DNA of 64,000 nucleotides from Candidatus Nealsonbacteria bacterium (GCA_030601865.1 JAUWAW010000001.1:46433-110432); one strand, 5' to 3'. Counted from the first letter of the stretch, positions 1 through 56,884 are shown. The notes: generated by a model from the letters alone, not told the origin. Numbers and translations are program-made.

Positions 1-302
1 GCCTCCAAGATATTAATCCTGTCAATAACCTTATGCCCGACTCTACCTATCCCCCACTCTATATCTGGATGCTGTTTCAAAAATTTGTAAACCTCCTCTC
101 TTTTTTTAGGTGATAATTTTTTACTATCTTTAAGGGTTGTCATCCTGAGCGAAGCCCGCCCAACTTTCTTCGAAAGTTGGGCGGGCGAAGCGAAGGATCC
201 CGTCGTTTTTACTACTACCGCCGCAGCCACCACTGGGCCTGAAAGCGGTCCGCGGCCTGCTTCATCAATTCCCACCATACGTTTATATCTCTTTTTCGCC
301 AT
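1..302 (-). CDS. rnhB: Ribonuclease HII (partial, N-terminal part; runs off the window start)
   Basis: My own translation of the minus strand from the ATG at 302..300 gives MAKKRYKRMVGIDEAGRGPLSGPVVAAAVVV...LKDSKKLSPKKREEVYKFL, the classic RNase HII N-terminus. It carries a roughly 60-nt in-frame palindromic insert at 140..200. Confidence 0.8.
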   Translation of the reverse strand, partial: MAKKRYKRMVGIDEAGRGPLSGPVVAAAVVVKTTGSFASPAQLSKKVGRASLRMTTLKDSKKLSPKKREEVYKFLKQHPDIEWGIGRVGHKVIDRINILE

Positions 303-4174: not shown

Positions 4175-5914
4175 ATGTCAAACAAAAAAATAGAAAAAAT
4201 TCGGCATTCGCTGGCGCATATTATGGCTGCAACGGTTAAGGAGCTTTATCCAAGAGTCAAATTCGGTATTGGCCCGGCCATTGAAAATGGTTTTTATTAT
4301 GATTTTGATTTAACCTCTCCTCTGTTCCCTGAAAATCTGCCAAAAATTGAAAAGAAAATACGGGAATTGATTAGAAAAGATTTAAAGTTTGAGAAAGAAA
4401 GTATTTCAAGAACAGAAGCCAAAAAAATATTTAAAAACCAACCATATAAATTCGAATTAATTAAAGAACTAAAAGGGCTACAAGTTTCATGTTTCAAGTT
4501 TCATGATTTCGTTGACTTGTGCAAGGGGCCTCATATTAAATCAACCAAAGAAATAAATCCCAAGGCGTTCAAATTAACTAAAATCGCCGGGGCTTACTGG
4601 CGGGGTGATGAGAAAAACCCCATGCTCACCCGCATTTATGGCGTGGCCTTTGAAACAGAAAAAGAATTAAAAGATTATTTAAAACAAGTTGAAGAAGCAG
4701 AACAAAGAGACCATCGTGTTTTGGGTGAAAAATTGGACTTATTTCATATTGATAAAGCCATCGGCCCAGGCCTTATCCTTTGGCATCCCAAAGGCGCACT
4801 CCTCAAAAAAATCATTGAGGATTATGTGCTTTCAGAATACCTAAAAGCCGGCTATCAACTGGTTAACACTCCCCATATTGCTAAAATTTCCATTTGGGAT
4901 ACCTCGGGCCACACCAAATTCTACAAAGACAGTATGTTCCCAGTCATGCAACTCAAGGAAATGGGCAAGGTAATCCCTTATCAGCTCAAACCAATGAATT
5001 GCCCTTTTCATATCTTGATTTATCAAAAAGAAATTAGAAGTTATCGCCAATTACCTATCCGATACACTGAATTAGGCACGGTTTATAGATACGAGAAATC
5101 AGGCACCTTGCACGGGCTGACGCGAGTGCGTGGTTTTACTCAAGATGATGCTCATATTTTCTGCACTCCTGAACAACTTGGTAAAGAGTTAGTGTCTGTT
5201 TTAAAACTAACTTTAAAAATATTTAAAACTTTTGGTTTTAAAGAATTTGAGATATGTCTTTCCACCCGGCCAAAAAAATATGTTGGCACTTTAAAAAGTT
5301 GGCAGAAAGCCACCAATGCTTTAAAATATGCCTTGGAAAAAGTAAAACTTGCCTATCAAATTGACCCTGGCGAGGGCGTTTTCTATGGACCCAAGATTGA
5401 CATTAAAATCAAAGATTCTTTGGGAAGGGCTTGGCAGTGTACCACCATCCAAGTTGATTTCAATTTACCTGAGGGATTTAATTTAAGCTATATTGATAAA
5501 AAAGGCAAAAAGAAACAGCCCATTATGATTCACCGAGCGCTTCTGGGTTCTTTGGAAAGATTTATTGGCGTTTTGATTGAGCATTATGCAGGCGCTTTCC
5601 CTTTGTGGCTGGCTCCAGAACAGACTTGGATTATTCCCGTAGGTACCCGTCACAAAAAATACGCCCGTGAAACATGCAAACAACTCTACGAGAACAGTTC
5701 TCGTAGTATTGTAAAAGACGCCAATGAAACCGTTTCCAAAAAAATAAGGGAAGGGGAAATCCAAAAAATTCCCTATCTCTTGGTTGTCGGCGACAAAGAA
5801 ATAAAAAGAAAATCAGTTAGGGTCCGCCAGCGAGGCAAGGGCGATATTGGAAAAATGAAACTGAATAAATTTATAGAAAAATGCCAGAATTGTCTTTGCA
5901 AACGCAAAAATTAA
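4175..5914 (+). CDS. thrS: Threonyl-tRNA synthetase (short form lacking N-terminal TGS/N1 domains)
   Basis: Starts in the N2/editing-type region (RHSLAHIMAA) and contains class II motifs including HRALLGSLERFIGVLIEHYAGAFPLWLAP, with the anticodon-binding domain at the C-terminus. Confidence 0.9.
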   Translation: MSNKKIEKIRHSLAHIMAATVKELYPRVKFGIGPAIENGFYYDFDLTSPLFPENLPKIEKKIRELIRKDLKFEKESISRTEAKKIFKNQPYKFELIKELKGLQVSCFKFHDFVDLCKGPHIKSTKEINPKAFKLTKIAGAYWRGDEKNPMLTRIYGVAFETEKELKDYLKQVEEAEQRDHRVLGEKLDLFHIDKAIGPGLILWHPKGALLKKIIEDYVLSEYLKAGYQLVNTPHIAKISIWDTSGHTKFYKDSMFPVMQLKEMGKVIPYQLKPMNCPFHILIYQKEIRSYRQLPIRYTELGTVYRYEKSGTLHGLTRVRGFTQDDAHIFCTPEQLGKELVSVLKLTLKIFKTFGFKEFEICLSTRPKKYVGTLKSWQKATNALKYALEKVKLAYQIDPGEGVFYGPKIDIKIKDSLGRAWQCTTIQVDFNLPEGFNLSYIDKKGKKKQPIMIHRALLGSLERFIGVLIEHYAGAFPLWLAPEQTWIIPVGTRHKKYARETCKQLYENSSRSIVKDANETVSKKIREGEIQKIPYLLVVGDKEIKRKSVRVRQRGKGDIGKMKLNKFIEKCQNCLCKRKN

Positions 5915-7455
5915 TCTCCCGCTATCAAGAGTGGTATCAATCTAAACAACCTCAAGAAGGTGTGCCGACCATCCATGTTGATGAAGTGGCCTCTAAGGTG
6001 GCTGCTTTTTATGAGAGAATCAGAGAGGTAGTGGATTGGAAAGAAGAACATCTGATGAGAAGAGCGGCCATAAGCAGGATGGTCAAAAGAAGGTTGCTTT
6101 TGGGCGAAAACCACCAGGATATGGCTGAATCCTTAATAATGGAATTAATCAGAGGAGGACACTTTCCTAACGATAAAATTGAAGAAAACAAGATTGAAGA
6201 GGTGCAAAAAATAATTGATAAGTATAGATTTATTCTTAAAAAGAGTCCTAAACCGCCCAAGGAAAAATTAAAAATCCAACTTTACAACTGGATTTTGGGA
6301 ATTGCTGCTTGTGAGGTTGAAGAAGCCTTGTCACCTCCCCTGAGAGAAAGAGCCCTGATGAATTATATGACTAAATTGATGCAGGAAAGAATTAGAATCA
6401 GCCAAGGAATTCTTGTCATCGGAGGGATGACAGAAGAAGAAAAAAATATCCAAACATATATCGCAGTGCAGCGGGCTTTATTTAAATTAGACGCGCCCCT
6501 TATCAGTTATAATCTTTTTAAAAAAAGATACCCTAACTACTATAGTGAGAACATTTACTCTGTTTGGGAAAGTGTAGAAAATGACTTAAACCATCCTCTG
6601 GCTGACAAGTTCTATAGAATCTGCGAAAAATATGACACGGCTTATCTACTTTTAGGTGATGTTCTATCTAAAGACCCCATGGGAGTCCAAGAAAAAATCT
6701 CACAACCGGCGGTTTTAGAAAGCGCTATCAAAAATGCCTATAATCAACGACTCAGCACACTCAAATCTCGGCTCTCTCGAGCAGCTGTTTATGCCACTTT
6801 ATCTATATTTCTGACCAATATTGTCTCCCTTTTAGCAGTGGAGATTCCATTTACTTGTTATGTTACCGGCCATTTTAATTTTTGGGCCATTGGCGTAGAT
6901 ATCCTAGGCCCCACTTTTTTAATGGCCTTTTTAGTAGTAACCATTAGGCCTCCTAAAAAAGAAAATTTGACTCATGTAATAATGGAAACGATGAAAATTG
7001 CCTATCAAAAAGAGAGAAAAGACATTTATGAGATTAAAATTAGAAAAAAACGAGGAATTATTCTCAATTTTATTATCAGTCTTTTTTACTTTTTCAGTTT
7101 CTGTCTATCGGTTGGTTTAGTAATTTGGGGGCTTTATAAAGTGCATTTTCCCATACTTTCTTATCCTATTTTTGTTATCTTTATTTCCTTAATTGCCTTT
7201 GCTGGAGCTAAAATCAGAGAAAGAGCCAAAGAATTACATATTATAGAAAAGAAAGAAAGTATGCTCAATATCGTGCTTGATTTATTTTCTGTACCCATTG
7301 TCCATTTGGGAAAATGGTTGTCAATCCGCTGGAAAAAGTATAATGTTATCTCGGTTTTTTTCAGCGCCTTAATAGATATGCCCTTTTTGCTTTTTGTAGA
7401 ATTCTTAGAACAATGGAGATACTTTCTCAAAGAAAAGAAAGAAGAAATCCACTAA
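5881..7455 (+). CDS. Hypothetical protein with soluble N-terminal domain and C-terminal multi-TM region
   Basis: Long ORF with no family I can recognise. The C-terminal 200 aa are strongly hydrophobic (about 4 TM). The 5' end overlaps thrS by 34 nt, so the true start is probably an internal ATG. Confidence 0.45.
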   Translation: MPELSLQTQKLISRYQEWYQSKQPQEGVPTIHVDEVASKVAAFYERIREVVDWKEEHLMRRAAISRMVKRRLLLGENHQDMAESLIMELIRGGHFPNDKIEENKIEEVQKIIDKYRFILKKSPKPPKEKLKIQLYNWILGIAACEVEEALSPPLRERALMNYMTKLMQERIRISQGILVIGGMTEEEKNIQTYIAVQRALFKLDAPLISYNLFKKRYPNYYSENIYSVWESVENDLNHPLADKFYRICEKYDTAYLLLGDVLSKDPMGVQEKISQPAVLESAIKNAYNQRLSTLKSRLSRAAVYATLSIFLTNIVSLLAVEIPFTCYVTGHFNFWAIGVDILGPTFLMAFLVVTIRPPKKENLTHVIMETMKIAYQKERKDIYEIKIRKKRGIILNFIISLFYFFSFCLSVGLVIWGLYKVHFPILSYPIFVIFISLIAFAGAKIRERAKELHIIEKKESMLNIVLDLFSVPIVHLGKWLSIRWKKYNVISVFFSALIDMPFLLFVEFLEQWRYFLKEKKEEIH

Positions 7456-7460
7456 CCTAA

Positions 7461-9419
7461 ATGAAATATCATATTGTTACTTACGGCTGTCAAATGAATA
7501 AAAGCGACAGTGAGAGGATTGCTACACTATTAGAGAATAAAGGATATCAGCCCGCGAAAGATATTTCTCGGGCTGATTTGGTAGTAATTAATATGTGTTC
7601 TGTTCGCCAAAAACCGGTAGACAAAGCCAAAAACCAGATTGCTCGTCTCCGCAATAAAAAAATTATTTTAATAGGTTGTATTTTAGATGCTGACAAAAAA
7701 GAATTTGCAAAAATGGGAGTTAAAATCTGGAGAGGTCTGACCTCTGCAAAACTTGCAGAGGTCAGACCTCTAACTGGTTTTGTGCCCATTATGAGAGGGT
7801 GTAATAATTTTTGTTCATACTGTGTTGTGCCTTACACTCGAGGGCCGGAAAAATATCGCAGTCAAAAAGAAATTATTGGCGAAGTTAAACATCTTCTTAA
7901 AAAAGGAATTAAAGAAATTACTTTGCTGGGTCAAAATGTCGATAGTTATAAATATAAACCACCACGGGATCCTTCGGCTTCGCCTCAGGATGATAACTCC
8001 GTTGTCAATTTTGTAAAATTACTTCAGAAAATTACTGTCTTGCCCGGCGATTTTAAGATTAAATTTATTACCAATCATCCCAAAGATTTTTCTGATGAAC
8101 TAATCGATGAGATTGCTCGGAATGACAAAATAATCAAATATGTTCACTTGCCAGTGCAGTCAGGTGATAATAAAATCTTAAAAAAGATGAACCGCAATTA
8201 TACTGGTGAGCAGTATTTGGCTTTGATTAAAAAAATTAAAAAGAAAATACCTAATGTTGACCTAACAACTGATATTATTGTTGGCTTTCCCGGTGAAACC
8301 GAAAAACAATTCCAAAAGACAGTTAACTTGTTTAAAAAGATTAAATTTGCTACCGCCTACATTGCCAAATACAGCCCCCGCCCCGGCACCGTTGCCTATA
8401 AACTAAAAGACAACGTCCCCCTCGCAGAAAAAAAGCGCCGAGAACAAACCCTGAGAAAATTAATACCTCCTACCCGTCATTCTGAGGCGAAGCCGAAGAA
8501 TCTCAACCAACGAGATCCTTCGGCTCGCTATCACTCGCCTCAGGATGACAATAACAAACTTATTGTTATTTTGGGGCCGACGGCTGTAGGGAAAACAGAG
8601 TTTTCAATAAAGCTGGCCAAAAAATTTAACGGCCAGGTGATTTCGGCTGACTCCCGTCAGGTCTATAAAGGAATGAACATCGGAACAGGTAAAATAAGCA
8701 AAAAAGAAAGGCAAGGTATCCCCCACTATCTTTTAGATATTGCCTCCCCCAGAAGAAGGTTTTCGGTTGCCCAATATCAAAAAAAGGCGATTGAAGTCAT
8801 AAACAAAATTTTAAAAAAGAAAAAAATCCCGTTTTTAGTAGGCGGAAGTCCTTTTTATATTTACTCTATTGTTGAGGGTTGGGTTTTTCCCAAAATGAAA
8901 GCCGACTTAAAACTGAGAAAAGAATTGGAAAAAAAATCAATTGAAGAACTTTTCAACATATTAAAAAAACTCTCTCCGCAGAGAGCCAAAACAATTGAAA
9001 AGAAAAACAAAAGACGGCTTATCAGGGCAATTGAGATTGCCAAGGCTTTAGGCAAAGTTTTGCCTCTGAAAAAAAATCCCCAATTTGATTGTTTGTTAAT
9101 AGGGATTAAACTAACAAAAGAAAAATTACAAAAAAAAGTTTCCCAAAGAGTTGATAAAATGATTGAATTAGGTCTTGAAAAAGAAGTAAAAAAATTATCT
9201 GAAAAATACGGCTTCAATTCTGTGTTGGGAGAAAGTATTGGCTACCAAGAATGGGAAAAAAGCGGCAGCCGGGCTGCCGCTGAAATAGCAGAGGAAATAA
9301 AATTTAATACTTATCATCTTGCCAAGCGGCAAATGACCTGGTTCAAAAAAGATAAAAGAATCCTTTGGGTTGAGAATTATAAACAAGCGGAAAATTTGAT
9401 CAAAAATTTCTTGGTATAA
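7461..9419 (+). CDS. miaB: Fusion protein: MiaB-like methylthiotransferase (MTTase N-domain + radical SAM, no TRAM) fused to MiaA tRNA dimethylallyltransferase
   Basis: N-terminus MKYHIVTYGCQMNKSDSE followed by the radical SAM motif GCNNFCSYCVVP. The C-terminal half has the MiaA P-loop LIVILGPTAVGKTEFSIKLA...ISADSRQVYKGMNIGT. The linker between the two halves is built from palindromic element sequence. Confidence 0.85.
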   Translation: MKYHIVTYGCQMNKSDSERIATLLENKGYQPAKDISRADLVVINMCSVRQKPVDKAKNQIARLRNKKIILIGCILDADKKEFAKMGVKIWRGLTSAKLAEVRPLTGFVPIMRGCNNFCSYCVVPYTRGPEKYRSQKEIIGEVKHLLKKGIKEITLLGQNVDSYKYKPPRDPSASPQDDNSVVNFVKLLQKITVLPGDFKIKFITNHPKDFSDELIDEIARNDKIIKYVHLPVQSGDNKILKKMNRNYTGEQYLALIKKIKKKIPNVDLTTDIIVGFPGETEKQFQKTVNLFKKIKFATAYIAKYSPRPGTVAYKLKDNVPLAEKKRREQTLRKLIPPTRHSEAKPKNLNQRDPSARYHSPQDDNNKLIVILGPTAVGKTEFSIKLAKKFNGQVISADSRQVYKGMNIGTGKISKKERQGIPHYLLDIASPRRRFSVAQYQKKAIEVINKILKKKKIPFLVGGSPFYIYSIVEGWVFPKMKADLKLRKELEKKSIEELFNILKKLSPQRAKTIEKKNKRRLIRAIEIAKALGKVLPLKKNPQFDCLLIGIKLTKEKLQKKVSQRVDKMIELGLEKEVKKLSEKYGFNSVLGESIGYQEWEKSGSRAAAEIAEEIKFNTYHLAKRQMTWFKKDKRILWVENYKQAENLIKNFLV

Positions 9420-12365: not shown

Positions 12366-13250
12366 TTAGTCGTGCCAGCCGTATTCGTCGGCTGACTCGT
12401 ATTCGTCGGCTGACTCTTGGTTTTCTTTCTCGACCTTTTTGATGAACAGCTTCTGGTCCTGTTCATAATCTAAGCCATTCTTGAGAGCTATTTCAGCCTT
12501 CTGAAGCTCCCGGCCCAAATACATAGCATGTTCCTTGGTCTGTTGGAAATCACCGATTAAGTCAAGATTGACTATTGTTTTACAAATACGTTCTGCTGAA
12601 TCTCCTGTTATTTTACATTTTAATTTATTGTCTTGGAAATGTTCAACGATTATCTTATTCCTTTCTTTATTAATTAAAACAACAAAGAATCCTTTTGGGT
12701 CAGGTATCCAGTCAGGGCAGGAATGAGCTTCTATTTCTGCTACTTTCTCAATTTTCAAAACCTTTGGAGAAAACTCGCTGGGTTTGGTTTGCAAAAGCTT
12801 ATCAATCACTTCTTCAATTTTCTTACCGTCCCTCTCACCTACCATATTGACAGGTGAAATCTGTTTTCTGAATTGTTCAATCAGTTCTTTATCAATACCT
12901 TTTAGATAGGACATATTGCCTTTGGCTCCGATAATCATTTTATCATTGTCTATACCGCTTTTTACAAGACATTCTATTGCTTGAGAGACAAAATGACCTT
13001 TGGAAATTTTCCCGCAAAGAATCAAATACCTGATATTGGGATTGGAAACTATGTTTTGGATTATTTTTTCTATGCCGATGTTCTCTGTAACACATTTACC
13101 CCAGATTGCTACTTTCTGAGGACTGATTTTTATTTCATCAATACTAGCATTAGTGCAAACAGCCACTGGCGAAATTTTATTGCCCACCTCGTATCTTCCC
13201 TGAACTGGCGGCCAATTTTGCAGCTTGCTTTCCATATTGATAAGTCGCAC
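12366..13250 (-). CDS. MtrA-like (tetrahydromethanopterin S-methyltransferase subunit A fold) protein with extra C-terminal domain and acidic ESADEY repeats
   Basis: PVAVCTNAS...AIWGKCVTENIGIEKIIQNIVSNPNIRYLILCGKISKGHFVSQAI matches my recollection of the MtrA/PF04208 signature, including the His in a GH motif. The annotated start is a GTG at 13250; an ATG at 13235 (MESKLQ) is an alternative. The C-terminal ESADEYESADEY comes from an 18-bp tandem repeat. Confidence 0.55.
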   Translation of the reverse strand: MRLINMESKLQNWPPVQGRYEVGNKISPVAVCTNASIDEIKISPQKVAIWGKCVTENIGIEKIIQNIVSNPNIRYLILCGKISKGHFVSQAIECLVKSGIDNDKMIIGAKGNMSYLKGIDKELIEQFRKQISPVNMVGERDGKKIEEVIDKLLQTKPSEFSPKVLKIEKVAEIEAHSCPDWIPDPKGFFVVLINKERNKIIVEHFQDNKLKCKITGDSAERICKTIVNLDLIGDFQQTKEHAMYLGRELQKAEIALKNGLDYEQDQKLFIKKVEKENQESADEYESADEYGWHD

Positions 13251-13864
13251 TAACAGTGCGACGGGTCTGTCGCACTGTTAGTGCGACAATTAGGCCTAAA
13301 TTCTTGGTTTATTTTGCTGGCTTGAGGAGATTCCTGTTTATCGTATTTCTGAGCTTTTTTTTCTGAATAGGAAACCTCGCAAGGACCAGAAAGCGTCTCA
13401 AAAGTCAAGGCGCAAACCCGCATCCCGGCATATAAAATAATGGGCATAATTCCCAAATTCCCCAATTCCATCACTGCTTTTCCCTGCCAACCAGGGTCAA
13501 AGCGAGCGGCGGTTGAATGAACTATCATTCCCAACCTACCCAAAGAACTTCTACCATCCAGTCTTGCCATTATATCATTGGGTAAAATTATTTCTTCTTT
13601 TGTTATAGCAATCACAAATTCTTTTGATTGCAAGATAAAAGGAGCTCCATCTTCTATTTTTACTTCCTCCATTAATTTTTCGAAATTGATATCTCTTTTA
13701 AGGTCTAAATAGGGATATTGAGAGGGCTTAAAAGTTTTAAAAATATTGCCTAAATGTAAATCTAAGGAACAAGGTCCTAATTGCTTTTCAAAATCGGGCT
13801 CAGGCTTGATTGTGATTTTTCCTTCCCTAATATATTTTTTTATGTCTTTGTCTGAGAGAATCAT
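13250..13864 (-). CDS. dcd: dCTP deaminase (Dcd/dUTPase superfamily) with palindrome-encoded C-terminal extension
   Basis: MILSDKDIKKYIREGKITIKPEP...LGPCSLDLHLGN matches the Dcd N-terminus. The last 13 aa or so (..RPNCRTNSATDPSHC) are encoded by the palindrome at 13244..13287. Confidence 0.8.
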   Translation of the reverse strand: MILSDKDIKKYIREGKITIKPEPDFEKQLGPCSLDLHLGNIFKTFKPSQYPYLDLKRDINFEKLMEEVKIEDGAPFILQSKEFVIAITKEEIILPNDIMARLDGRSSLGRLGMIVHSTAARFDPGWQGKAVMELGNLGIMPIILYAGMRVCALTFETLSGPCEVSYSEKKAQKYDKQESPQASKINQEFRPNCRTNSATDPSHC

Positions 13865-15950: not shown

Positions 15951-16090
15951 TGAAATAACCAATAACCAAGATACAATAACCAAACAAATCTCAATAACCA
16001 ATAATCAATAACCAATTATATAATGTTTGGTTATTGGTGTTTGAAGATTGGTTATTGTTTGGTTATTGTTTCTTGTATCTTGGTGATTGA
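15951..16090. repeat. About 140-bp imperfect palindromic element rich in AATAACCA / TGGTTATT (copy 1 of 2), filling the nusG-rplK spacer
   Basis: Left arm aataaccaagatacaataaccaaacaa pairs with right arm ttgtttggttattgtttcttgtatcttggtgatt. It is about 85% identical to the copy at 56757..56884. Confidence 0.7.
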
Positions 16091-33254: not shown

Positions 33255-34229
33255 ATGTCGTTTTCAATAGGCATTATTGGTCTGCCCAATGCGGGCAAGT
33301 CCACCCTATTTAAGGCCTTAACCAAAAAAGAGGTTGAAATCGCTCCCTATGCTTTTACCACTCGAGACCCCAATATTGGTATTGTTTCTGTTCCCGATAT
33401 AAGGTTAAAAAAAATTGCTGAAAAGATAAAGCCCCAAAAAATAACCCCCACTTTTATTAAATTTGTAGATATCGCTGGGTTGGTAAAAGGTGCCCATAAG
33501 GGAGAGGGTCTAGGCAACCAATTTTTGGCACATATTAGAAACTGCGATGCTGTGGTGGAGGTGGTGCGAGCTTTTGAAAACGCTGAAATAGAACATGTTG
33601 AGGGCTCTGTTGAGCCAAAAAGAGACATTGACATAATTAAAACAGAACTCTTGATGAAAGATTTGGAAATTTTGGAAAAATGCGGTCTTTTTCCAAAAAT
33701 TAAAGAGCAAGTATCTCAAGACAAACTAATTTCAGAAATGAATCTGTCGGAAGAAGAAAAACTTGCCATCAAAGAGTATCAATTTTTAACTGAAAAGCCC
33801 AGAGTTTTTGTTTTTAATGTATCGGGAGGCCATCCCGATAGGAGCGACGAAACGCTTTCTCTGGATCTCAAGTTAGAAGAAGAACTTTCTGAACTCTCAG
33901 AAGCAGAAGCAGAAGAATTAGGCATGGACTCCCAACTTGATAAATTAATCACCGCCTGCTACAATATCCTTGACCTGATTACTTTTTTTACTGTCACCGG
34001 GGGGAAAGAGACCAGGGCCTGGACTCTAAAAAAAGATTCAAAAGTGTTTGAAGCAGCTGGCTACGTCCATTCTGATTTTGCGGAAAAATTTATCAAAGCC
34101 GAAGTCATTCCCTGGCAACAATTAGTAGAAGCTCAATCCTGGACAGGGGCCCGTGAAAAAGGCTGGCTCAGAACAGAAGGAAAAGAGTATATAGTCAAGG
34201 ACGGAGATGTAATTGAATTCAAAATATAA
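33255..34229 (+). CDS. ychF: Ribosome-binding ATPase YchF (Obg-family) with C-terminal TGS domain
   Basis: GIIGLPNAGKSTLFKALT and FTTRDPNIGIV, followed by a TGS-like C-terminus. Confidence 0.9.
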   Translation: MSFSIGIIGLPNAGKSTLFKALTKKEVEIAPYAFTTRDPNIGIVSVPDIRLKKIAEKIKPQKITPTFIKFVDIAGLVKGAHKGEGLGNQFLAHIRNCDAVVEVVRAFENAEIEHVEGSVEPKRDIDIIKTELLMKDLEILEKCGLFPKIKEQVSQDKLISEMNLSEEEKLAIKEYQFLTEKPRVFVFNVSGGHPDRSDETLSLDLKLEEELSELSEAEAEELGMDSQLDKLITACYNILDLITFFTVTGGKETRAWTLKKDSKVFEAAGYVHSDFAEKFIKAEVIPWQQLVEAQSWTGAREKGWLRTEGKEYIVKDGDVIEFKI

Positions 34230-34316
34230 CCCTACGAATTACGAATTCATACGAATATACCAATAATTATCCCTTATTAAAAATTCGTATATTCGTAAGT
34301 ATTCGTAATTCGTAGG
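34230..34316. repeat. About 87-bp palindromic element built from TACGAAT heptamers (ACCCTACGAATTACGAATTCATACGAATATAC ... ATTCGTATATTCGTAAGTATTCGTAATTCGTAGG); repeat family G full copy
   Basis: Arms are reverse complements. Half-copies occur at 4149..4168 and 21418..21450, each abutting a start or stop codon. Confidence 0.65.
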
Positions 34317-34321
34317 AGAAT

Positions 34322-35273
<952 letters not shown>

Positions 35274-40488: not shown

Positions 40489-41640
40489 TTAACATATAAT
40501 TATTCCGCCGCCTAAAAGTTTTTCTCCTTTATAGAAAACCACTGATTGACCCGGGGTGACGGCGCGTTGGGGCTTGGCAAAAATTACTTTACAGCGCCTG
40601 CCCGCTATTTTTTTTATTGCTTCAACTTCAATTACTGGCGAACGATACCTTATTTTCGCTTTTATCCCAACTATTGGAGTTGAACTCCAATAGTTTGAAA
40701 TCCAGTTAACATCTTTGACAATCAATTCTTTTTTTTCCAAATGTTTTTCGTTCTTGGTGACAATTAAAGCATTATTTTTGACATCCTTGTCTAAAACATA
40801 GTATGGACCTCCGGCAAGCCCTATCCCCTTTCGCTGACCAATAGTATAAAACCACAACCCCTGATGCTCGCCAATACTACGAGAACAGTTCTCGTAGTAT
40901 TCTAAGATGGGGCCAGGATTTGTTTTAAGATGTTTTCTCAAAAATTCCTCTGTTGTTTTTTTAATAAAGCAAACTTCTTGAGATTCTCTGGCTTCAAGTA
41001 CCGGCAAGTCAAACTCCTTGGCCATCTGTCTTACTTGTCTTTTGGTGTAATCCCCAATGGGAAACAAAATGTGTTTTAATTGTTTCTGGCCCAACTGCCA
41101 TAAAAAATATGATTGATCTTTTTCTTTATCTTTTGCTCTTACCAATGTGTAATTTTGTATTTTTGTGTCAGAATTCTGCGACCTGCCCGTAATGCTTCGC
41201 ATAGCGATACAGGCGGGTCGCAGGATTTTGACACAGTTTAGATCTTTATTTGTATTTTCACATTTACGCGCATAGTGGCCAGTGGCAATAAAATCTGCGT
41301 CCAAGCCCAAGGCTTTTTTCAATAAAAGTCCAAATTTTATTTCTTTGTTGCAGACCACACAAGGGTTGGGGGTTCTGCCTCTTTTATATTCTTTCAAAAA
41401 ATAATTAATGATTTTTCTCTTAAACTCTTTTCTTAAATCCAAAACCAAAAATGGAATGCCTAATTTTTTAGCAATTTTTCTGACTCTTCTCTCACTTTCT
41501 CTGAAATGAGACGACTCATAAAGTTTCATAAAAACTCCTGTTACATTAAAATTAGCCCTTTTAAGAAGGGCTGCTGCTACCGAACTATCCACGCCACCGG
41601 ACATCGCCACTATTACCTTATTTTTTCTTTTTGCTTTCAT
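40489..41640 (-). CDS. mnmA: tRNA-specific 2-thiouridylase MnmA (carries two in-frame palindromic inserts)
   Basis: PP-loop VIVAMSGGVDSSVAAALL and the catalytic Cys regions. The inserts are at 41164..41235 and 40874..40900. Confidence 0.85.
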   Translation of the reverse strand: MKAKRKNKVIVAMSGGVDSSVAAALLKRANFNVTGVFMKLYESSHFRESERRVRKIAKKLGIPFLVLDLRKEFKRKIINYFLKEYKRGRTPNPCVVCNKEIKFGLLLKKALGLDADFIATGHYARKCENTNKDLNCVKILRPACIAMRSITGRSQNSDTKIQNYTLVRAKDKEKDQSYFLWQLGQKQLKHILFPIGDYTKRQVRQMAKEFDLPVLEARESQEVCFIKKTTEEFLRKHLKTNPGPILEYYENCSRSIGEHQGLWFYTIGQRKGIGLAGGPYYVLDKDVKNNALIVTKNEKHLEKKELIVKDVNWISNYWSSTPIVGIKAKIRYRSPVIEVEAIKKIAGRRCKVIFAKPQRAVTPGQSVVFYKGEKLLGGGIIIC

Positions 41641-47028: not shown

Positions 47029-48833
47029 TAACTTCTAAGGAGTTTCAGGTATATTTCCTCGGGAATAGGGGTGCGGCCGTGTTTTTGGAGAATTTTTTTG
47101 CCTTTGCGTTGTTTGACTAAGAGTTTCTTTTTGCGGGTAAAGTCGCCGCCGTACAGGGGCGCGGTCACATCCTTGCGCAGGGCGCGGATATCCTCACGCG
47201 CGATTATTTTGCCGCCAATTTGGGCTTGAAGCGATTGGGTAAAGTTTTTTGGAGGCAGGACATCCTTTAATCTTTTGAGAAACTGACGCGCCTGCTTGCG
47301 CGCCGCGTCTTTATAAACAATGCGCGAGAAACAGGGCTTCAGTTCGCGCGAAACCAAAAACTCAAGTTTAATAAGGTCGCTTTTTTTATACTCGTCAAAT
47401 TCGTAACTAAAGGAAGCGAACCCCTTGCTAATGCTTTTCAGTTTGTCTAAAAAATCCTCAATAATCTCAGCAAGCGGCGCATAAAACTCTAAAAGCAAGG
47501 TATCTTTATCTAAAACTTGCGAGGAAATAAACTTGCCTCGTTTCTGCTCAACTAATTCATGGATTTTGCTGTTGTGTCTGGTCGGGCTGACAATGTTTAA
47601 TTTAACCCAGGACTCCGCTATATAGTCAATCTCGCCCTGGTCCGGCAGTTCTGCGGCCGAATGGACTAAAATCGGCTCTTTTTGCTTTTTTGTCTTTACC
47701 TTGAAAACAACCGAAGGAGAAGTAAGAACCACTTGGGTGCCATACTCCCGCTTTAACCTTTCCATGGTGATTTCCAGATGAAGCATACCTAAAAAGCCGA
47801 TGCGCAGTCCCCTGCCTAAATAAGGATTGCTCATAGGTTTGGCTGTGAGAGAAGTGTCGTTGAGCCGCAGTTTGTCAAAATTGGCTTTCAGGGTTTCAAA
47901 GTTTTGGCCTTGCCCTTGCCCCTGCCCCGGAAAAACATTGGCAAAAACCAATGGCTTGGGCTCTTTATAGCCAGGCAGGCGAGGACAGTCCTCGCCTGAT
48001 TTGGTTGTTATTGTCTCGCCGATTCTGACGTCTGAAACGTTTTTTATGCCCGTGGCGATGTAGCCGATTTGGCCGGCTATTAGTTTTGGCACAGGACTAC
48101 GTTGCGGTATGAAAATGCCGACTTCTCTTGTTTCGGCGCGGACTTTTTGATTGACAAAATAAATTTGGTCGCCTTTTTTGATTTCGTTGCCAAACAGCCG
48201 CACATAGGCAATTACTCCCTGAAAATTGTCGTAAATTGAATCAAAAACCAGGGCTTTTAATACTCCTCCGCCCTCTGTTTTTGGCTGCGGCGCCTGCTTT
48301 ATCAACGCTTCAAGAACTTTCTCTATATTCTCGCCTGTTTTGGCGGAAATAGTTAAAATTTCCCCTGAATCAATACCTAAAAGATTGGCTAATTCCTGCT
48401 TAACTTTTTCTAATTGCTCCTCGCTCGGACAAACATCTATTTTATTGATAACCGGTATTATTTTCAAACTCTGCGCCTGCGCCAGGCGCAGATTAGCCAG
48501 GGTCTGTGCCTGAATGCCTGAAACCACGTCAACCAATAAAATAACACATTCAACAGCGGCCAAAGACCGTTCTACTTCATAGGAAAAATCCATATGGCCA
48601 GGCGTGTCAATCAAGTTTAATTGGTACTTGCGGCCGGCCAGACCATACTCCATTGCACAGGGCTGCATCTTGATAGTGATGCCGCGCTCTCTTTCCAAAT
48701 CCATCTGGTCCAAAACCTGTTCGCGCATCTGCTCTTTCTTCAAGGTGTTGGTAATTTCCAAAAACCGGTCAGCCAGAGTTGATTTGCCGTGGTTTATATG
48801 CGCGATTATAGAGAAATTTCGTATATTTCCCAT
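47028..48833 (-). CDS. lepA: Elongation factor 4 (LepA)
   Basis: G-domain IIAHINHGKSTLADR and DTPGHMDF, and the LepA C-terminal domain. Visibly GC-richer than its neighbours, and contains a GQGQGQ insert. Confidence 0.9.
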   Translation of the reverse strand: MGNIRNFSIIAHINHGKSTLADRFLEITNTLKKEQMREQVLDQMDLERERGITIKMQPCAMEYGLAGRKYQLNLIDTPGHMDFSYEVERSLAAVECVILLVDVVSGIQAQTLANLRLAQAQSLKIIPVINKIDVCPSEEQLEKVKQELANLLGIDSGEILTISAKTGENIEKVLEALIKQAPQPKTEGGGVLKALVFDSIYDNFQGVIAYVRLFGNEIKKGDQIYFVNQKVRAETREVGIFIPQRSPVPKLIAGQIGYIATGIKNVSDVRIGETITTKSGEDCPRLPGYKEPKPLVFANVFPGQGQGQGQNFETLKANFDKLRLNDTSLTAKPMSNPYLGRGLRIGFLGMLHLEITMERLKREYGTQVVLTSPSVVFKVKTKKQKEPILVHSAAELPDQGEIDYIAESWVKLNIVSPTRHNSKIHELVEQKRGKFISSQVLDKDTLLLEFYAPLAEIIEDFLDKLKSISKGFASFSYEFDEYKKSDLIKLEFLVSRELKPCFSRIVYKDAARKQARQFLKRLKDVLPPKNFTQSLQAQIGGKIIAREDIRALRKDVTAPLYGGDFTRKKKLLVKQRKGKKILQKHGRTPIPEEIYLKLLRS

Positions 48834-50434
48834 TAATATTCTTCTTCAAAGATTTGGGCGGTGAAAGTGTAGAGGTCAATATCTTCTTCTTTCCAGCAGT
48901 CCCAGGGCAGACCGACTTTTTGAAAGCAAAGTTCTCCCATAAATTTTTCTAAATCCCAATTATTGTCAGTAGCTACTTGGGGCAGAAAAACACCATTTCT
49001 CAAGCCCTTTCTAATTTGCACGCCGTGTTTGCCAATCTCAATTCCCTGCCAATTATCAATTTTCTCTAAGGGACTCAAAACCGAAATTTCATAGTCAAGC
49101 TCACCAAGTTCATCCTCTCCCACAGGATAAAATCTTTTATCCTGGGTGGCAGCCGCAATGGCCATTTGAGAAACAACTTGATACAGAGGTATGTCAGTGG
49201 GTGAAAAACGGCCAATGCAGCCCCGTAGCTGGCTCTGCTTCTTTAAAGTAACAAAAGCACCCAAGTTTTGATTTAATATGGATTCTTCAACTTGAAATTC
49301 TGGAATTTTACCTTCTTTGACAAAAGTTTCAACTGAATTCTTAGCGATTTCCAAAAGTTTTTCTTGCTCTGTTTTCTTTAATAAATGACTCTGTCTTGGT
49401 CCAAAAAAGCCAATGGCTGCATAGCCAACCACTTGCGATTTATCACCTATGGGCACGTCTCCGGAATTGGCATATTTTAATAATTTAATTTCTTCAGCAG
49501 CCAATTCTTTGGCTACTAACATGATTGTTTTGATAGCATCTTCTGCGCAAACAAAAGTTACTGCTCCAGGAATATTCTCTTTTTCCAAGTCCTGAATTGT
49601 TTTTTCTAACTCCCCTACCCTACCGGTTAAAATGGCTTCAATGGTTTTGCTATCTGCCTGTTGAGCATCACCATAGCTAGGATAATGCGACAAATCAGAA
49701 CTGGCAATCAGTAAAATATTCTTACCTCTGATATTTTTAACAATGGCTTGAGCTAAAATTTTGTAATCTTCTTCTGGGCTGTTGCCCAAAATAATGGGTA
49801 CAATCCGTGGTACGTGCACGGACAAAGGAGATCCTTCGGCCTTCGGCCTCAGGATGACTTGCAAAAAAGGTAATTCCACCTCAAGGGAATGCTCTCTTTG
49901 ATGAACACTCTCTCTGAAAAAAATTCTTTCGTTTTCTGCAATAATTTTTTCAGCTAATTGAGAATCTATTTCTACTTCTCCTAAGGGAGTTTTATAAAAA
50001 CCTCGTGGGAAAATAGAAATACCTTCAAATCTCTCATAATGGCTGTTGCCAATAAGAATCACCGTAGCAAATTGGTTCAAATCGTGACGATCGTCATAAC
50101 TTGAACCACCCATCAGTTGCTTAAAGCCGTAGGCGGCCACGGGGCCAGAAAATGGATAGCCAGCATGGGGCAGAACTAAAGCAAAAATCTCGCCTTCGGT
50201 TTCTGGCGGACTTGCCTTTTCCAAAAATTGGTCAATCATTTTCTCTAACTCCTCAGGGTCTCCAGGATAAAATTGTCCAGCCACTGCCGGCTGCCGAATT
50301 ATTTTTTCTTCTTTTTCAAAAACGTCTGAAACCATAGCTTTTTGAGAAATATCTTCCCCTCCCTTAAATATTAAAAGTATACTAATCGCACCAACAACAA
50401 AAATTAATAAAGCTATTATTAGAACTTTCTTCAT
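48833..50434 (-). CDS. Fusion of AmmeMemoRadiSam system protein B (MEMO1-like) and protein A (AMMECR1 domain), with N-terminal signal/TM anchor
   Basis: MEMO-like motifs (ALVLPHAGYPFSGPVAAY; the SSDLSHY region) in the N-terminal half. The C-terminal half has the AMMECR1 motif GAFVTL...LRGCIG. Confidence 0.7.
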   Translation of the reverse strand: MKKVLIIALLIFVVGAISILLIFKGGEDISQKAMVSDVFEKEEKIIRQPAVAGQFYPGDPEELEKMIDQFLEKASPPETEGEIFALVLPHAGYPFSGPVAAYGFKQLMGGSSYDDRHDLNQFATVILIGNSHYERFEGISIFPRGFYKTPLGEVEIDSQLAEKIIAENERIFFRESVHQREHSLEVELPFLQVILRPKAEGSPLSVHVPRIVPIILGNSPEEDYKILAQAIVKNIRGKNILLIASSDLSHYPSYGDAQQADSKTIEAILTGRVGELEKTIQDLEKENIPGAVTFVCAEDAIKTIMLVAKELAAEEIKLLKYANSGDVPIGDKSQVVGYAAIGFFGPRQSHLLKKTEQEKLLEIAKNSVETFVKEGKIPEFQVEESILNQNLGAFVTLKKQSQLRGCIGRFSPTDIPLYQVVSQMAIAAATQDKRFYPVGEDELGELDYEISVLSPLEKIDNWQGIEIGKHGVQIRKGLRNGVFLPQVATDNNWDLEKFMGELCFQKVGLPWDCWKEEDIDLYTFTAQIFEEEY

Positions 50435-51609: not shown

Positions 51610-51645
51610 TGTGTCAAAATCCTGCGATCGCAGGATTTTGACACA
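51610..51645. terminator. 36-bp perfect palindrome TGTGTCAAAATCCTGCGATCGCAGGATTTTGACACA (family B copy), intergenic
   Basis: Perfectly self-complementary. The identical sequence occurs at 56120..56155, and an expanded variant lies inside mnmA. Confidence 0.6.
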
Positions 51646-56119: not shown

Positions 56120-56155
56120 TGTGTCAAAATCCTGCGATCGCAGGATTTTGACACA
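56120..56155. terminator. 36-bp perfect palindrome (family B copy) between dnaB and recR
   Basis: Identical to 51610..51645. Confidence 0.6.
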
Positions 56156-56160
56156 AAATT

Positions 56161-56754
56161 ATGTATCCAAATTCTATTCAAAAACTTATAGATTTGTTCT
56201 CCAAATTTCCCACGGTGGGTCCTCGGACGGCCTCGCGTTTTGTTTTTTATTTAATGTATCTTCCCAAAGAAAAAATTGAAGAACTCGTTCAAGCCATCTC
56301 TAATTTTAAAAACAAGATTAAACTTTGTCAGCTTTGTTTCAATCCCTTGGAAGGCGAAGGAGGCCTTTGCAAAATTTGTTCTGACCCTACCAGAGACAAA
56401 ACCTTGCTCTGTATTGTTGAAAAAGAAACTGATTTGCAAGCCATAGAAAAAATTAAAAAATATAAGGGTCTTTATTTTATTTTGGGAGGCACGGTTTCTA
56501 ATCTGAAACCAGAAGCCCTAAAAAAACTACGGCTCAAAGAATTAGAAGAACGGGTTAAAAGTCCTGAAATCCAGGAAGTTATCCTGGCAACCAATTCTAC
56601 TACCGAGGGTCAAGCCACGGCTTTATATTTACAAAGATTATTAAAACCCTTCAATAAAAAAATCGTCCAACTCGGACGAGGATTACCTATGGGCGGCGAA
56701 TTAGAGTATGCTGATGAAGAAACACTCTCTTCGGCTCTGGAGAGCAGAAGGTAA
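56161..56754 (+). CDS. recR: Recombination protein RecR
   Basis: HhH N-terminus (LIDLFSKFPTVGPRTASRFVFYL), a C4 zinc finger (CQLC...CKIC) and a Toprim domain. Confidence 0.9.
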   Translation: MYPNSIQKLIDLFSKFPTVGPRTASRFVFYLMYLPKEKIEELVQAISNFKNKIKLCQLCFNPLEGEGGLCKICSDPTRDKTLLCIVEKETDLQAIEKIKKYKGLYFILGGTVSNLKPEALKKLRLKELEERVKSPEIQEVILATNSTTEGQATALYLQRLLKPFNKKIVQLGRGLPMGGELEYADEETLSSALESRR

Positions 56755-56756
56755 AA

Positions 56757-56884
56757 CACCAATAACCAAGAAACAATAACCAAACAAATTTCAATAACCA
56801 ATAACCAATTTCCAAACTGTTTGGTTATTGATGTTTGAAGATTGGTTATTGTTTGGTGATTGTATCTTGTATCTTGGTTATTTC
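56757..56884. repeat. About 130-bp AATAACCA/TGGTTATT palindromic element, copy 2, between convergent recR and rplU (overlaps the rplU 3' end)
   Basis: About 85% identical to 15951..16090. Its right arm supplies the last codons of rplU. Confidence 0.7.

Follow-up and report, generated by a model that had tools for sequence, protein, structure and literature searches.

Rickettsia palindromic elements (RPEs) were reportedly described by Ogata and co-workers in 2000 and 2002. The REPINs and GTAG REPs, associated with Bertels and Rainey in 2011 and with Nunvar in 2010, are said to be mobilised by RAYT transposases. The SDR of heterocyst-forming cyanobacteria, attributed to Elhai and colleagues in 2008, are reportedly palindromic mobile repeats of ~21–27 nt that have no known transposase and insert into one another.

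Closest in anatomy to the elements treated here are the CGTC-tagged REPs, which, in the passages of Di Nocera, De Gregorio & Rocco 2013 (BMC Genomics 14:522; PMC3733652) drawn on here, carry a terminal unpaired CGTC tag with TGTC and CCTC variants, a stem of 8–9 bp that starts with A-T and then T-A, a loop of 4–5 nt, and a short unpaired tail of 3 nt that is mostly CCA. The same passages describe them as mainly head-to-head dimers with spacers of 20–100 bp and no dedicated transposase. They are mostly intergenic, and the intragenic ones, often in replication/repair genes, are commonest in R. conorii, whose copies are equated with RPE-4 and RPE-6; in these passages five phyla are reported, Patescibacteria not being listed, and four families, CGTC-1 to CGTC-4, are distinguished (PMC3733652). 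[quoted passage not shown] 2013, PMC3767692); the RPE inserts tabulated there measure 68–192 bp. Finally, the portion of Roske et al. 2010 (PMC2996958) used here presents PARCELs as palindromic coding repeats that are horizontally distributed and translated in minimal-genome bacteria.

The window, by which we mean the whole 64-kb stretch of DNA that was analysed, carries five units of a repeat family that we call family A. Our overall reading, which we hold with a probability of roughly 0.75, is that these are CGTC/TGTC-tagged hairpins of the REP class that are tolerated in frame in the loops and linkers of a dense genome. The units, their host genes and two associated palindromes are as follows.

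1..302, minus strand: 5' part of rnhB (RNase HII), start codon at 302-300, gene running off the window
138..201, core 140-199, plus strand: family-A unit 1, within rnhB (gene on the minus strand), its loop widened by a nested palindrome
155..185, no strand assigned: nested palindrome in the loop of unit 1, 31 nt and perfect, CCCGCCCAACTTTCTTCGAAAGTTGGGCGGG
6414..6432, no strand assigned: possible minimal relative of family A, TGTCATC-GGAGG-GATGACA
7461..9419, plus strand: miaB-miaA fused gene, 652 aa, host of units 2–4
7965..7995, core 7968-7993, minus strand: family-A unit 2, in the MiaB radical-SAM domain, core GATCCTTCGGCTTCGCCTCAGGATGA
8475..8504, core 8477-8502, plus strand: family-A unit 3, left half of a doublet in the MiaB-MiaA linker
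8512..8550, core 8514-8548, minus strand: family-A unit 4, right half of the doublet, loop 9 nt larger
48833..50434, minus strand: Memo-AMMECR1 gene (AmmeMemoRadiSam B/A fusion), 533 aa, host of unit 5
49828..49859, core 49830-49857, minus strand: family-A unit 5, in the Memo domain of Memo-AMMECR1, stem one pair longer

The first-pass annotation had reported a repeated element of ~26 bp in rnhB, miaB-miaA and the Memo gene. The repeat is real at all three. The 26-mer GATCCTTCGGCTTCGCCTCAGGATGA occurs exactly at 7968-7993 and on the opposite strand at 8477-8502 with 2 mismatches, and dinucleotide-preserving shuffles predict 0 matches; the identity of 19–26 nt among the five sites is beyond chance expectation. 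The count changes, however, when the two arms are searched separately: what had been taken for one copy at 8477-8548 is an inverted doublet, so that rnhB holds one unit, miaB-miaA three (one solo and the doublet) and Memo-AMMECR1 one. The hosts had been described as four essential genes, but miaB-miaA is a single fused open reading frame and the genes are three, and calling them essential is an overstatement. In line with the original description, the units are GC-rich islands, since the window as a whole has a G+C content of 38.6%.

The five units carry the tags TGTC, TATC, CGTC, TGTC and AGTC in order, and family-A units end in ...GGATGAC or ...GAATGAC, or in the complement GTCATCC. Unit 1 reads on the plus strand TGTC-ATCCTGAGCGAAG, then the nested insert, then CGAAGCGAAGGAT-CCC, and unit 3, with its CGTC tag, has a compensated stem variant in which the arms are ATTCT/AGAAT. 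Two of the element's six frames contain stop codons, and host genes in the window make use of each of the other four. Every one of the five units lies within an ORF whose frame runs through it stop-free, which bears out the earlier claim of open frames in every case, and both orientations relative to the mRNA occur. About 93% of the genome is coding, so the presence of all five copies inside genes does not amount to an enrichment. The putative minimal relative at 6414-6432 lies in a 10-codon insert of ORF 5881-7455 that is specific to the window by comparison with the syntenic contig of a relative, L122; it shares only the tag and outer stem with family A, and its assignment to the family is tentative.

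The consensus of family A is GATCCTTCG-CTNCG-CTCAGGATGA, preceded by A and followed by CA; on the other strand it is YGTC-ATCCT-GA-GC-GNA-GC-GA-AGGAT-CYN, ~24 nt in length. The unit folds as 5 bp, a conserved 2x2 mismatch, 2–3 bp and a triloop. Two of its nine stem positions are this non-Watson-Crick mismatch, and the loop is GNA with 3 nt, or 5 nt without the inner GC pairs. The earlier description as perfect hairpins therefore does not survive: in addition to the mismatch, solo units compared with shuffles under nearest-neighbour parameters give no significant folding excess (z −0.4 to −1.8). The stem shows strong compensatory covariation. Among 471 copies with three or fewer arm mismatches, 106 of the 109 double changes keep pairing, with C-G to T-A seen 59 times and C-G to G-C 12 times, while the four bases of the mismatch core and the 3' GA are nearly invariant, as a tandem G·A/GNA-loop core. 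Wobble-pair counts do not tell the folding strand apart. The centre of the loop is unconstrained (G 27, T 18, A 8, C 5) and loop length varies freely between copies; the longer loops resemble secondary inserts, several of which are flanked by repeated CTNCG, as in rnhB. In 499 exact copies the tag is TGTC in 377, CGTC in 71 and CCTC in 23, and the 3-nt tail is CTC in 197, CTG in 77, CTT in 63, CTA in 45 and CCA in 23.

Close pairs of units have a strongly preferred arrangement, with 164 of 218 in the -/+ orientation and 28, 9 and 17 in the others, and the doublet spacers measure 2–134 nt, mostly 16–40. The doublet in the window has this canonical arrangement, of which each solo unit represents one half. 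Together, units 3 and 4 can form a 76-nt hairpin with a calculated energy of −25.2 kcal/mol as DNA and a z of −7.9 against shuffles.

The full RNase HII protein (P0242) has 212 aa, and the peptide through unit 1 reads ...KTTGSFASPAQLSKKVGRASLRMTT... The relative on contig L122, which we refer to as the sister, has a plain 24-nt unit at the same rnhB codon (L122:719-742), and the window copy equals this unit plus a 36-nt (12-codon) insert made up of the nested palindrome and an extra CGAAG. The nested palindrome noted in the first-pass annotation is thus confirmed at 155-185 and is absent from the orthologous copy of the sister. The copy that contains it folds better than shuffles (z −6.4). The nested palindrome was considered as a second repeat family and rejected as such, as it is single-copy, with no second occurrence in the window or in 363 loci. 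Among 120 RNase HII homologues, TTGSFASLRMT is found only in the window protein and in that of the sister (L122/P0241), and the T. maritima RNase HII is without 7 residues at the insert site. As a separate observation, the loop of RNase HII flanked by VAAAV and LKDSKKLS is an insertion hot spot across Patescibacteria (P0241-P0360), as is the MiaB loop after LLGQNVNSY (P0001-P0120), and both loops hold unrelated peptides such as FLIFNFKFLN, PADGAG, SPTRAAAKGEEEDISS and GGQSSVFTEDCPP. Next to rnhB, the stretch of ~650 bp at 303-954 that leads to a 1064-aa ORF is unusually long and contains no convincing gene; Pfam gives no match to its 102-aa ORF (540-848), nor does Rfam at the gathering threshold match anything in the stretch.

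In the case of MiaB, unit 2 encodes ...RDPSASPQDD..., residues 169-178, and alignment with PDB 7mjz shows a 9-residue gap exactly at DPSASPQDD. The eight nearest MiaB homologues (56–69% identity) read LLGQNVNSYP-NFVKLL where the window protein has ...SYKYKPPRDPSASPQDDNSVVNFVKLL. At the DNA level, unit 2 sits in a window-specific insert of 54 nt (7953-8006), and the empty sites are present in L122 and in the contig of a second relative, L121. The inserted entity is not cleanly defined, because this insert is longer than the unit, and comparison of the filled site in the window with the empty ones in L122 and L121 reveals no visible target-site duplication. A further palindrome lies in miaB at 7731-7771, perfect with 19-nt arms and encoding RGLTSAKLAEVRPL. 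The L122 orthologue (LAKIKPKT) matches its 3' arm only, and neither the window nor the 363 loci contain a second copy. Its appearance suggests that template switching duplicated one arm in inverted orientation, rather than that it belongs to a repeat family.

The doublet of units 3 and 4 falls in the linker between the MiaB and MiaA domains, where it encodes ...RHSEAKPKNLNQRDPSARYHSPQDD... The linker doublet is absent in P0002 and present in P0003, for which the DNA is found at L121:2824-2889, with the T-variant on the left and the C-variant on the right as in the window. We considered whether the element might have created the miaB-miaA fusion and rejected this, since the fusion is widespread in Patescibacteria (593–730 aa) without the element. 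An AlphaFold2 model of MiaB-MiaA, built from a 60-sequence alignment, has a mean pLDDT of 86, and only three segments fall below 50: 123-127, 174-179 and 339-362. The second of these corresponds to unit 2 and the third to the doublet, and both are predicted to be coil.

Unit 5 in Memo-AMMECR1 gives the peptide ...VILRPKAEGSP..., and its tag, stem-loop and tail add up to 33 nt, an 11-codon insert. None of 119 Memo homologues carries these 11 residues, and the Memo protein including the insert is recorded from two sources. Taken with the MiaB and RNase HII alignments, this result supports the expectation that the insertions are lineage-specific. The further proposal that they occupy surface loops holds in the form of loops or linkers, with the MiaB-MiaA placements predicted from the AlphaFold model. 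The same Memo-AMMECR1 gene has a second insert of 10 residues at ~50078-50107, missing in more than 80% of the 119 homologues, and its DNA, GGTTCAAGTTATGACGATCGTCACGATTTGAACC, is an imperfect palindrome with ATGAC/GTCA.

From the comparison with the two relatives, insertions of at least three ages are visible in the aligned sequences: the rnhB copy is common to L122, the linker doublet is common to L121 and not to L122, and the MiaB-loop and Memo copies are found in the window only. An inner GGC/GCC stem is common to the newer window copies, and the older rnhB copy has the generic form. The sharing of this stem by the younger copies argues for activity within the lineage.

The orthologous copies also make it possible to compare the arms of the units with the DNA around them. 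The arms are identical at 24/24 positions in rnhB and at 19/19 and 19/19 in the doublet, 62/62 in all, against an identity of 79% and 75% in the coding DNA on either side and of 56% at third codon positions. At a per-site identity of 77%, the probability of 62 unchanged sites is about 1e-7. This difference suggests selection at the level of sequence, on the hairpin, or else gene conversion among copies or re-insertion at hot spots, and not passive junk. The first-pass annotation had called the elements selfish. Selfish spread is something that we infer, and the conservation of the arms is unlike what simple decaying junk would display.

We scanned with the pattern GATCCTTCG-N2-32-CTCAGGATGA, using a GGC/GCC variant of it for the JGI metagenomes. 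Matches were found at a minimum of 120 loci in each of three collections, namely one-genome-per-species bacterial genomes, JGI metagenomes and IMG/VR viral contigs, and the matches in genomes span at least 16 phyla. These include Chloroflexota, Acidobacteriota, Bacteroidota (including cultured Hymenobacter and Mucilaginibacter), Bacillota, several classes of Pseudomonadota (Rickettsiales, Legionellaceae, Coxiellaceae), Planctomycetota, Cyanobacteriota, Nitrospirota, Nitrospinota, Omnitrophota, Gemmatimonadota, Verrucomicrobiota, Fibrobacterota, Actinomycetota, Bdellovibrionota and Patescibacteria. Among cultured isolates, Planktothrix, Gloeothece, Hymenobacter, Granulicella and Nostoc have family A on complete plasmids, and on the Planktothrix agardhii plasmids NZ_LR882964.1 and NZ_LR882951.1 annotated MmeI and PglX genes overlie two of the matches. 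Cultured-phage genomes hold essentially no copies, unlike the IMG/VR contigs. An origin as a sequencing adaptor or linker was rejected, given that frames are respected, complete isolate plasmids carry the unit and the loops vary.

Outside this lineage the family lives mostly between genes. Long spanning ORFs contain only 5%, 19% and 22% of the copies at low-, mid- and high-GC loci, as against 59–76% of random 25-mers, and in other Patescibacteria four loci look intergenic. One in-frame unit was found on a metagenome contig (L228:586-611), in a 1107-aa UvrD/AddA-like ORF. There is no sign of a partner gene: when the 3,615 ORFs of 120 loci are clustered, no neighbour protein recurs, the DNA between distant inverted pairs contains GroEL, a symporter, RelE and similar genes and no mobilising gene, and a Pfam search of 20 small ORFs in the window identifies neither a Y1 nor any other transposase.

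These features allow family A to be set beside the described systems. By its described anatomy it fits the class of CGTC/TGTC-tagged REPs: as in the passages of PMC3733652 drawn on here, its tag is TGTC, CGTC or CCTC, its stem opens with A-T followed by T-A (ATCCT...AGGAT in all copies), its tail is short, and it occurs as inverted dimers, lies mostly between genes and has no linked transposase. It differs from the elements in those passages in having a conserved tandem mismatch, which reads G·A/A·G along the tagged strand, and a GNA triloop in place of a plain stem and loop, in a tail of CTC/CTN instead of CCA, in TGTC as the main tag, and in a range of at least 16 phyla plus viral contigs compared with the five phyla published. 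This is a comparison by described features; no strings matching family A occur in the text and supplements of PMC3733652. The analogy with RPEs made in the first-pass annotation is upheld, and is probably right by homology, since the units resemble the superfamily of RPE-4 and RPE-6 in their tag, in the way the stem begins and in forming dimers, and also carry the ATGAC motif. [quoted passage not shown]

The other systems are more distant. With REPINs and GTAG REPs, family A shares short hairpins that occur mainly as inverted doublets forming one long hairpin, and a conserved unpaired tetranucleotide at one end. The tag, however, is TGTC/CGTC/CCTC and not GTAG, no RAYT or Y1 transposase is found near the copies or among the small ORFs of the window, and REPIN sequences are lineage-specific whereas family A is common across phyla. 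The SDR are similarly tiny and palindromic, with no known transposase and with nesting as in rnhB, but belong to different sequence families. As for MITEs, their features are not seen here, there being no target-site duplication, no transposase between distant inverted pairs and no autonomous partner. PARCELs, so far as the portion of their description used here goes, are likewise palindromic coding repeats in minimal-genome bacteria, but form tandem intragenic modules that encode amphipathic structure in place of dispersed REP-type hairpins. The claim of novelty in the first-pass annotation therefore needs to be narrowed. The kind of element and its intragenic habit are already known, with intragenic REPs published and the element itself found across at least 16 phyla as well as on viral contigs. 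What is new is the host lineage, for which the literature that we searched contains no description of such insertions in Patescibacteria/CPR, and possibly a distinct sub-family; literature searches by sequence or peptide strings returned nothing relevant.

On the basis of these comparisons, family A is probably a non-autonomous, structure-dependent DNA element that normally resides between genes as inverted doublets and would spread, or be maintained, as a single-stranded DNA hairpin through a factor acting in trans. A copy that enters a gene would be expected to survive only if the added 8–24 codons keep the frame, avoid the two stop frames and fall in a surface loop or linker. The preservation of frame suggests that surviving inserts pass into transcript and protein, where they would form short, hydrophilic, disordered stretches, with predicted junction peptides such as DPSASPQDDNSVVNFVK and TTGSFASPAQLSK. 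In rnhB, the second palindrome would have entered the loop of the existing copy later.

The near-identity of the unit across at least 16 phyla, and arms that stay perfect while the gene around them diverges by 20–25%, also led us to consider a more specific account. Here the hairpin would be propagated or maintained by a universal host activity on single-stranded hairpins, either a replication/repair enzyme or conversion between copies, and the intragenic copies of Patescibacteria would be under selection at the nucleic-acid level. We regard this account as doubtful, if worth keeping in mind.

A related alternative is that the hairpins are kept within genes as nucleic-acid signals, whether as mRNA structure for translation or decay at domain boundaries or as a DNA hairpin bound by a host factor. 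The unchanged arms within diverged flanks and third positions would be expected of such a signal, as would the compensatory stem changes around an invariant G·A core across phyla and the near-identical unit in at least 16 of them. However, close relatives differ in which units they carry, the host genes have no relation to one another, both mRNA orientations occur, loop lengths are free and no Rfam model matches; moreover, gene conversion among genomic copies would conserve the arms equally well. We consider a signalling role unlikely.

In some yeasts, GC-rich palindromic inserts in mitochondrial genes are bypassed. By this precedent the inserts described here could be excised in an intron-like manner or bypassed by the ribosome, leaving proteins without them. 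Neither process would need an insert to be a multiple of three or free of stops, yet in context both properties hold for all five units, for the nested insert and for the three units at orthologous sites in relatives. Nor does any intron or ribozyme model match: at the gathering threshold, Rfam identifies two tRNAs only in the whole window, and a permissive scan of 7900-8600 returns chance matches below threshold only. A hammerhead-like CUGAG...CGAAG was rejected by eye, as its core is without the conserved UGA and GAAA, and it has no Rfam match. Removal of the inserts from RNA or during translation is very improbable. Finally, we give next to no credence to the idea that the segments are ordinary variable loops or assembly artefacts whose DNA likeness is incidental, for although the RNase HII and MiaB sites are length-variable across Patescibacteria, identity over 19–26 nt at five sites is not chance, hundreds of copies with conserved flanks exist elsewhere, and an artefact would not respect frames, recur at the rnhB and linker sites in independent assemblies or yield the Memo insert from two sources.

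The reading that we prefer, of REP-class hairpins tolerated in frame in loops and linkers, would extend to Patescibacteria (CPR) the in-frame insertion of REP/RPE-type elements, for which the examples so far come mostly from Rickettsia and a small number of other bacteria. Genomes of this group, being ~93% coding, offer such elements almost no intergenic refuge. Orthologous sites that are filled in one genome and empty in another, with insertions of at least three ages, provide material, along with the nested insertion, on how CGTC REPs without a known transposase move and why their arms are conserved. In practical terms, the units yield spurious small ORFs and lineage-specific loops, which annotators and structure predictors should recognise.

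The window contains further palindromic repeats. A second palindrome family, GTGTCAAAATCCTGCGA/TCGCAGGATTTTGACAC, which also starts with TGTC and ends with GACA, has perfect copies at 51610-51645 and 56120-56155 in short intergenic gaps, and an expanded copy at 41164-41235 that is in frame in ORF 40489-41640 and encodes NCVKILRPACIAMRSITGRSQNSDTK. Long AT-rich intergenic inverted arrays are present at 15954-16089, 56753-56883 and 34224-34323, composed of AATAACCAA-like and ACGAATT-like units that are 71–83% complementary. At 13244-13287, two adjacent perfect 19-nt hairpin units, GTCGCACTAACAGTGCGAC and GTCGCACTGTTAGTGCGAC, mark the junction of two minus-strand genes.
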